From the NCBI RefSeq assembly GCF_003334305.1, contig NZ_QOWS01000008.1: a DNA stretch of 64,000 nt; one strand, given 5' to 3'. Every line of letters starts with the position of its first letter. Position 1 is the stretch's first letter. Source of the DNA: Escherichia coli. GTDB taxonomy: Bacteria > Pseudomonadota > Gammaproteobacteria > Enterobacterales > Enterobacteriaceae. Made by a program: the position numbers and the translations under genes. Below, one piece after another: positions 1,741 to 1,779 of the stretch. Under the pieces are notes generated by a model that made no database searches, was not told the origin of the DNA, and saw only the letters and a program-made list of their open reading frames with translations.

Positions 1741-1779
1741 CCCCTCACCCTAACCCTCTCCCCAAAGGGGCGAGGGGAC
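1741..1779 (+). repeat. GC-rich extragenic repeat (Box C-like), copy 1
   Basis: cccctcaccctaaccctctccccaaaggggcgaggggac; near-identical second copy at 8757..8795. Confidence 0.5.

Follow-up and report, generated by a model that had tools for sequence, protein, structure and literature searches.

Paired BoxC (PIT/TMECO) repeats bracketing yhfS-yhfZ in Escherichia coli and a deletion junction within the repeat in O157:H7

Two identical sites in a 64-kb stretch of chromosome (the window), one just past yhfS and the other just past trpS, are unremarkable members of BoxC, a short dispersed repeat already described in E. coli under the further names PIT element and TMECO; their subtype is 'type A mm'. 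It is very probable that these BoxC copies have no dedicated role in gene expression and that their main effect falls on genome stability and recombination. Each copy can be read as a C-rich tract and two G-rich tracts of about 10 nt apiece, and the G-rich (minus) strand, when single-stranded, is expected from published in vitro work to form an intrastrand purine-motif triplex by folding back on itself two times. The element probably occupies permissive intergenic space at gene 3' ends, much as REPs do, most likely without tuning expression there, and may instead mark unstable intergenic segments. Identical dispersed copies could recombine with each other, and the direct pair in the window would be placed for this, bracketing yhfS-yhfZ. 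The identity of the copies, their number across genomes, the alleles at both loci and the junction of a deletion are described here from direct comparison.

Identity and architecture of the two copies

The window is E. coli chromosome, its genes mapped by comparison with MG1655. The gene frlR lies on the plus strand, with its stop codon ending at 1667, and is convergent with yhfS (1819-2904), which is followed on the same minus strand by yhfZ (7641-8546) and trpS (8815-9819). The repeat is an exact direct repeat of 43 nt, TCCCCTCACCCTAACCCTCTCCCCAAAGGGGCGAGGGGACCGT, at 1740-1782 and 8757-8799, with a spacing of 7,017 bp, and is the longest exact direct repeat reported within the 64-kb window. 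A sequence-only reading had described it as a 39-mer present twice in one orientation. That 39-mer has exactly two exact matches in the window, both on the plus strand, and the copies prove identical when realigned; the interval given for the first (1741-1779) stands, whereas that for the second (8757-8795) was one base off and is properly 8758-8796. No match to the 39-mer occurs in any of 100 dinucleotide-preserving shuffles.

Copy 1 (1740..1782, minus strand) is intergenic between frlR and yhfS, 73 nt past the frlR stop and 36 nt past that of yhfS (1819). Copy 2 (8757..8799, minus strand; TMECO core 8758-8793) begins 15 nt past the trpS stop codon (8815-8817) and sits between it and the terminator, inside the trpS 3' untranslated region. 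Both copies therefore lie at gene 3' ends, as had been claimed, and each has the neighbouring palindrome that the same reading noted. Beside copy 1 is a REP palindrome downstream of frlR (~1671..1716, no strand assigned), a member of a separate repeat family that is also present in O157:H7. Beside copy 2 is an intrinsic-terminator-like hairpin with a T run (8668..8689, minus strand), taken as the trpS terminator and kept in all three alleles compared. The earlier placement of copy 1 'after frlR' is correct as to position, but yhfS and trpS, both on the minus strand, have the G-rich strand as their sense strand, and 'after yhfS' is therefore the better wording.

On the minus strand the element reads ACGGTC-CCCTCGCCCC-TTT-GGGGAGAGGG-TTA-GGGTGAGGGG-A. 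In copy 1 the C-rich tract CCCTCGCCCC (1767..1776, minus strand) is the Watson-Crick partner of G tract 1, apart from one G/A mismatch, from which the 'mm' of the type name derives. Loop 1 (TTT, 1764-1766, minus strand) separates it from G tract 1, GGGGAGAGGG (1754..1763, minus strand), the central purine tract of the TMECO layout. Loop 2 (TTA, 1751-1753, minus strand), which defines 'type A', leads to G tract 2, GGGTGAGGGG (1741..1750, minus strand), the third strand proposed in the same layout. The imperfect hairpin reported earlier, in which CCCTCTCCCC pairs with GGGGCGAGGG with one mismatch, is present, but a potential intrastrand triplex has three tracts and the hairpin accounts for just two of them; the third, CCCCTCACCC, had been left uninterpreted.

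Comparison with the published consensus identifies the family. The TMECO pattern CCCTCNCCC-N3-6-GGGNGAGGG-N3-GGGNGAGGG is matched exactly at 1742-1776 and 8759-8793 on the minus strand and nowhere else in the 64-kb window; shuffled sequence gives no match. Both copies belong to the commonest TMECO subtype, type A, which has a TTA loop, and carry a single mismatch in the stem. Copy 1 corresponds as a 43-mer to MG1655 3,504,856-3,504,898, enclosing TMECO no. 15 (3,504,857-3,504,892) with the same 36-nt sequence. The frlR-yhfS spacer is identical throughout between the window and MG1655, so that copy 1 is the catalogued TMECO no. 15, entered as antisense and 'type A mm' in Table 1 of Holder et al. 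2015, which holds 23 MG1655 copies (PMC4666352). Loop 1 is the sole difference in six other K-12 type A copies. The fabI-ycjD spacer of MG1655 carries a BoxC copy with one mismatch over 43 nt, which is no. 9 of the same table. Copy 2 is not on the K-12 list, MG1655 being without it, and may be among the 63 supplementary loci of that study.

According to Holder et al., the motif was first named BoxC (Bergler 1992, at envM = fabI) and later the PIT element (Hoyne, Maher 2000, 2002) (PMC4666352). It is also treated in Bachellier et al. 1999, and an independent survey describes E. coli BoxC as a 56-bp element with 32 copies. BoxC itself has thus been known since 1992, its biophysics dates from 2000-2015, and copy 1 stands in a published table. 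As an element, BoxC/PIT/TMECO does not differ from the window copies, being of the same sequence, intergenic and multicopy. The MG1655 annotation used contains no repeat features and hence offers no name for it.

A genome-wide search completes the assignment. The 43-mer has blastn matches in 5,426 of 5,426 complete E. coli genomes, at a median of 19 places per genome (range 2-35). The guarded suggestion of a dispersed Box C-type element is thereby confirmed, since both copies fit the published BoxC/TMECO consensus, copy 1 is catalogued and the family occurs in every genome. In annotation both sites should be labelled BoxC/TMECO repeat regions, not terminators or RNA genes.

BoxC and REP/BIME (PU) elements are alike in being short, GC-rich, strain-variable extragenic palindromes at gene 3' ends, and they occupy the same type of slot. 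REPs differ in having an unrelated sequence and a single imperfect palindrome with no third tract. They number hundreds per genome, have an associated transposase (RAYT) and show RNA-stabilising and protein-binding activities. Identification of BoxC as a REP was rejected: the match to REP-derived naRNA4 covers the adjacent REP (1673-1732) and not the BoxC interval. The BoxC allele at trpS is likewise no REP variant, giving no alignment with the K-12 REP-pair allele there. Across the whole window Rfam returns nothing at gathering thresholds, and the low-threshold matches over BoxC to Antizyme_FSE (16-21 bits, threshold 40), mir-9193 and C/D-box snoRNAs are at chance level. The REP after frlR (1671-1732) itself gives a sub-threshold match to naRNA4, a REP-derived nucleoid-associated RNA, of 31.7 bits against a gathering threshold of 59.5 (E = 4e-4).

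Alleles at the two loci and the O157:H7 junction

With both direct copies present in the window, comparison across genomes yields a full allelic series of none, one, two and one recombinant copy: B2 strains have neither, K-12 has copy 1 only, the window strain has both and O157:H7 has a single recombinant copy. Copy 2 is absent from MG1655 and from B2 strains. The trpS slot, running from stop codon to terminator (window 8690-8814; MG1655 locus L001 10500-10634; strain JJ2434), has at least three alleles. The window allele, a BoxC segment of ~125 nt, occurs in 1,525 of 5,426 genomes. Where the window strain carries BoxC, K-12 carries a pair of REPs, and the B2 allele of JJ2434 leaves only 18 nt between stop codon and terminator. 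At frlR-yhfS the full window allele is found in 2,862 of 5,426 genomes, strain EcPNK004 retains a truncated BoxC remnant consisting of the last 11 nt only, and in strains without the frl operon yhfL adjoins yhfS with no BoxC.

A further locus also varies. In the adk-hemH spacer a 157-nt BoxC-containing adk 3' segment (locus L009, 180-336) is present in 2,913 of 5,426 genomes, and in the genomes sampled from the remainder its place is taken by 53 nt of unrelated sequence that contain a separate hairpin. This variation is cassette-like replacement, not simple insertion.

The recombinant allele of O157:H7 is resolved to the base. In strain TX 376-2, frlR, BoxC and trpS are contiguous, without yhfS-yhfZ. 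The missing interval (1783..8799, no strand assigned) measures 7,017 bp and contains yhfS, yhfT, yhfU, a truncated php, yhfW, yhfX, yhfY and yhfZ together with one repeat copy. An unambiguous three-way alignment shows the left side of the junction following the left flank of copy 1, REP included, then an intact 43-mer, after which the sequence continues without a difference from the right flank of copy 2 and into the trpS end. The crossover thus lies within the 43-nt repeat, and the deletion is 7,017 bp as measured on the window strain. Of 5,426 complete genomes, 342 have this frlR-BoxC-trpS junction; they may descend from a single historical event, the carriers inspected being O157:H7 or unlabelled.

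This structure is the product expected of recombination between the two direct copies, which we infer to be its cause. Campbell-type integration of a BoxC-bearing circle would result in the same structure with the direction of change reversed, but K-12, B1-type and B2 genomes all carry yhfS-yhfZ, and deletion in the O157:H7 lineage is favoured for that reason. No paper describing the deletion was found in the literature searched. Holder et al. report far greater variability among E. coli strains at TMECO loci than in control intergenic regions, and raise recombination between distant TMECO copies only as a possibility in principle (PMC4666352). The O157:H7 junction supplies a concrete, base-resolved and probable case of recombination between BoxC copies. 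What remains new beyond the identity of the element is this defined junction, together with two kinds of unexplained conservation, that of the flanks and that of the core between phyla.

A second deletion lies within the same interval and concerns php alone. Relative to MG1655 (locus L001, 5713-6591), php in the window has lost 682 bp internally at ~4618-4619, with the junction GAGAGGGAT|GTAACGG. What is left is a 186-aa open reading frame (4232-4792) extending from the php start to the yhfU stop codon.

Triplex formation and roles at gene 3' ends

An intrastrand purine-motif triplex is indicated in vitro by CD and NMR of oligonucleotides with the G-rich sequence; type A mm melts at 74 C, and the negative control oligonucleotide used by Holder et al. 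is the exact sequence of the window copies with four G-to-C changes (PMC4666352). Addition of the complementary strand yields duplex and not triplex, and in vivo DMS footprinting as reported there detected no protection and no stable triplex (PMC4666352). Folding predictions limited to Watson-Crick pairs allow the C tract to pair with either G tract, which is what the triplex design requires; the isolated 43-mer folds no better than shuffled sequences at a significant level (z -1.6 to -1.8). H-DNA and mirror-repeat tracts are similar in being homopurine-homopyrimidine sequences with three-stranded potential, and the literature ties both them and BoxC to polymerase arrest and genome instability. 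BoxC differs in relying on an intrastrand double fold-back that needs single-stranded DNA, instead of a long duplex mirror repeat, and a non-B-DNA mirror-repeat search recovers just 2 of 23 TMECOs. Of the 13 single copies in Table 1 of Holder et al., 8 have their G-rich strand on the leading strand of replication, as judged from the positions of oriC and the terminus, a count that shows no bias.

The position of the copies invites a reading as RNA structure, in which BoxC in the 3' untranslated region would shield the upstream mRNA from 3'-to-5' exonucleases or tune its expression in the manner of REP hairpins. The slot of copy 2, bounded by the trpS stop codon and terminator, is exactly the one that two REPs occupy in K-12. 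For both copies the gene immediately preceding, yhfS (36 nt away) or trpS (15 nt), has the G-rich strand as its sense strand. Within both 3' regions a stable RNA hairpin using the C tract is predicted, with G tract 1 as its partner after trpS and mainly G tract 2 after yhfS. Several K-12 copies are also in sense orientation 18-54 nt past a stop codon, at tauD, adk, zntA and tldD. Other K-12 copies, however, run antisense to the operon that holds them (pstA-pstB, yihS-yihR) or fall within a promoter region (fepB-entC), and with sense copies at some genes and antisense copies at these two operons no orientation rule can be supported. Holder et al. likewise report no bias in TMECO strand, distance to genes or gene function (PMC4666352). 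B2 strains moreover keep trpS without any element, and the weak folding of the isolated 43-mer noted above points the same way. Such a role appears very unlikely.

Harder still to credit is BoxC as a rho-independent terminator of the upstream gene. A GC-rich hairpin at a gene 3' end is what such a terminator would provide, but here the hairpin is followed by TTAGGGTGAGGGG, with no T run, and a terminator scan flagged neither copy; the canonical trpS terminator is flagged ~70 nt further downstream. The sequence-only reading had proposed a check for termination, and the scan returned no terminator at either site; the intrinsic-terminator reading was rejected. Earlier functional work, as summarised by Holder et al., found that the element blocks polymerase in vitro and saw no promoter or terminator activity, with RNA polymerase, termination and conjugation unaffected (Hoyne & Maher via PMC4666352).

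BoxC is best regarded as without a dedicated expression function, and it is probably functionally neutral where it stands. Pure neutrality nevertheless fails to explain the strong conservation of the core and the occurrence of the same core in distant phyla.

The repeat unit and its distribution

When 15 type A copies, drawn from MG1655 and the window, are aligned, conservation is seen to continue past the 36-nt triplex motif on both flanks. The conserved 5' flank covers about 20 nt (roughly ...aaa.gtGC.CGGaCgGTC) and the 3' flank about 25-30 nt (GAACAGGCC.GCAC.GGTGCGAA.ATTA); in inverted A+B doublets the 3' conserved flank forms the spacer toward the partner copy. A unit longer than the motif fits the older description of BoxC as a 56-bp element. 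At four K-12 copies the unit starts with CAGACTGATGACAAAG directly after a locus-specific GC hairpin, and at gcvP homology with an element-less strain resumes exactly at the unit boundary, at the terminator.

The outer edge of several BoxC units carries CAGA(C/G)TGATGAC(A/G)AAG after the locus-specific GC hairpin; in the window it is seen at 8668-8700 (plus strand), on the far side of copy 2. The MG1655 trpS site, which is without BoxC, still keeps the close variant CAGAGTGATGAT. This motif could reflect a target preference for terminators or could be part of the element. CCGTAC...GTACGG flanks copy 1; joined, the two halves would make the palindrome CCGTACGG, possibly a target that was split.

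A unit of this kind might be a small non-autonomous mobile element, present or recent, resembling a MITE or a REPIN doublet and moved by a transposase that recognises the hairpin or triplex. Conservation past the triplex motif would agree with mobility, as would the inverted A+B doublets at loci of E. coli, Polaromonas, Burkholderiales, Verrucomicrobiales and Pseudomonas, the part of the 5' flank common to E. coli and a Pseudomonas species, the spread from 2 to 35 places per genome and the strain-variable presence at both window loci. Against it, comparison of filled and candidate empty alleles at four loci (frlR-yhfS, trpS, adk-hemH, gcvP) yielded neither a clean empty site nor a duplicated target. 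The EcPNK004 allele at frlR-yhfS is a truncated remnant and not an empty site, the short B2 allele at trpS does not have clean junctions with the BoxC allele, and at adk-hemH and gcvP the entire segment is replaced, leaving no empty site. At all four, alleles differ by replacement of a whole segment from stop codon to terminator. No transposase candidate was identified, and Holder et al. report no link to transposons, phages or plasmids (PMC4666352). Mobility of this kind is judged unlikely, and BoxC as a marker of unstable intergenic segments, with recombination between resident copies, remains the preferred account.

Phages were rejected as carriers, matches being confined to 7 of 50,697 phage records and weak or odd. 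In a plasmid collection 855 of 72,556 records match, including Rhizobium, Sinorhizobium and Azospirillum replicons at 80-90% identity; many of the best matches in that database are megabase-sized records, which also speaks against a mobile element.

Holder et al. report the motif in 262 proteobacterial genomes (PMC4666352). A consensus scan of one genome per GTDB species found at least 120 loci with at least 146 copies. Among the matches listed, multicopy families occur in Polaromonas, Mitsuaria and other Burkholderiales, in one Pseudomonas species, in Hyphomicrobiales and Verrucomicrobiales and in an unclassified bacterium; single matches among those listed come from several other phyla and one archaeal metagenome-assembled genome, and single matches in assemblies of that type call for caution. 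A spread wider than that of Holder et al. is a lead and not a finding. In nearly all of the matches listed the variable consensus positions read GGGAGAGGG then GGGTGAGGG, while the flanks are lineage-specific; the Pseudomonas 5' flank resembles that of E. coli.

These features allow a broader and quite unlikely proposal in two parts. In the first, the 36-nt core would be the conserved working part of a larger element that some widely distributed mechanism copies or moves, whether a hairpin- or triplex-recognising transposase, replication or repair. Separately, E. coli would repeatedly lose islands through recombination between BoxC copies, the O157:H7 deletion of yhfS-yhfZ being the first defined example. 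If true, the larger-element part would explain why the same core is multicopy with lineage-specific flanks in distant phyla, why E. coli and Pseudomonas share part of a flank and why copies stand directly after terminator hairpins.

Two genomes in the scan show distinctive arrangements. In Pseudomonas sp. 7P_10.2_Bac1 (loci L134, L135 and L136) the motif occurs in tandem arrays with units of about 110-130 nt, in which internal units are reduced to the CCCTCTCCC/GGGAGAGGG hairpin and full three-tract cores stand at both ends, facing outward. The metagenome-assembled genome 'bacterium GL140_5' (L023-L048) contains at least 28 triplex-core copies in two subfamilies, each distinguished by a particular set of conserved flanks and having an additional hairpin downstream, marking them as separate repeat vehicles for one shared core.
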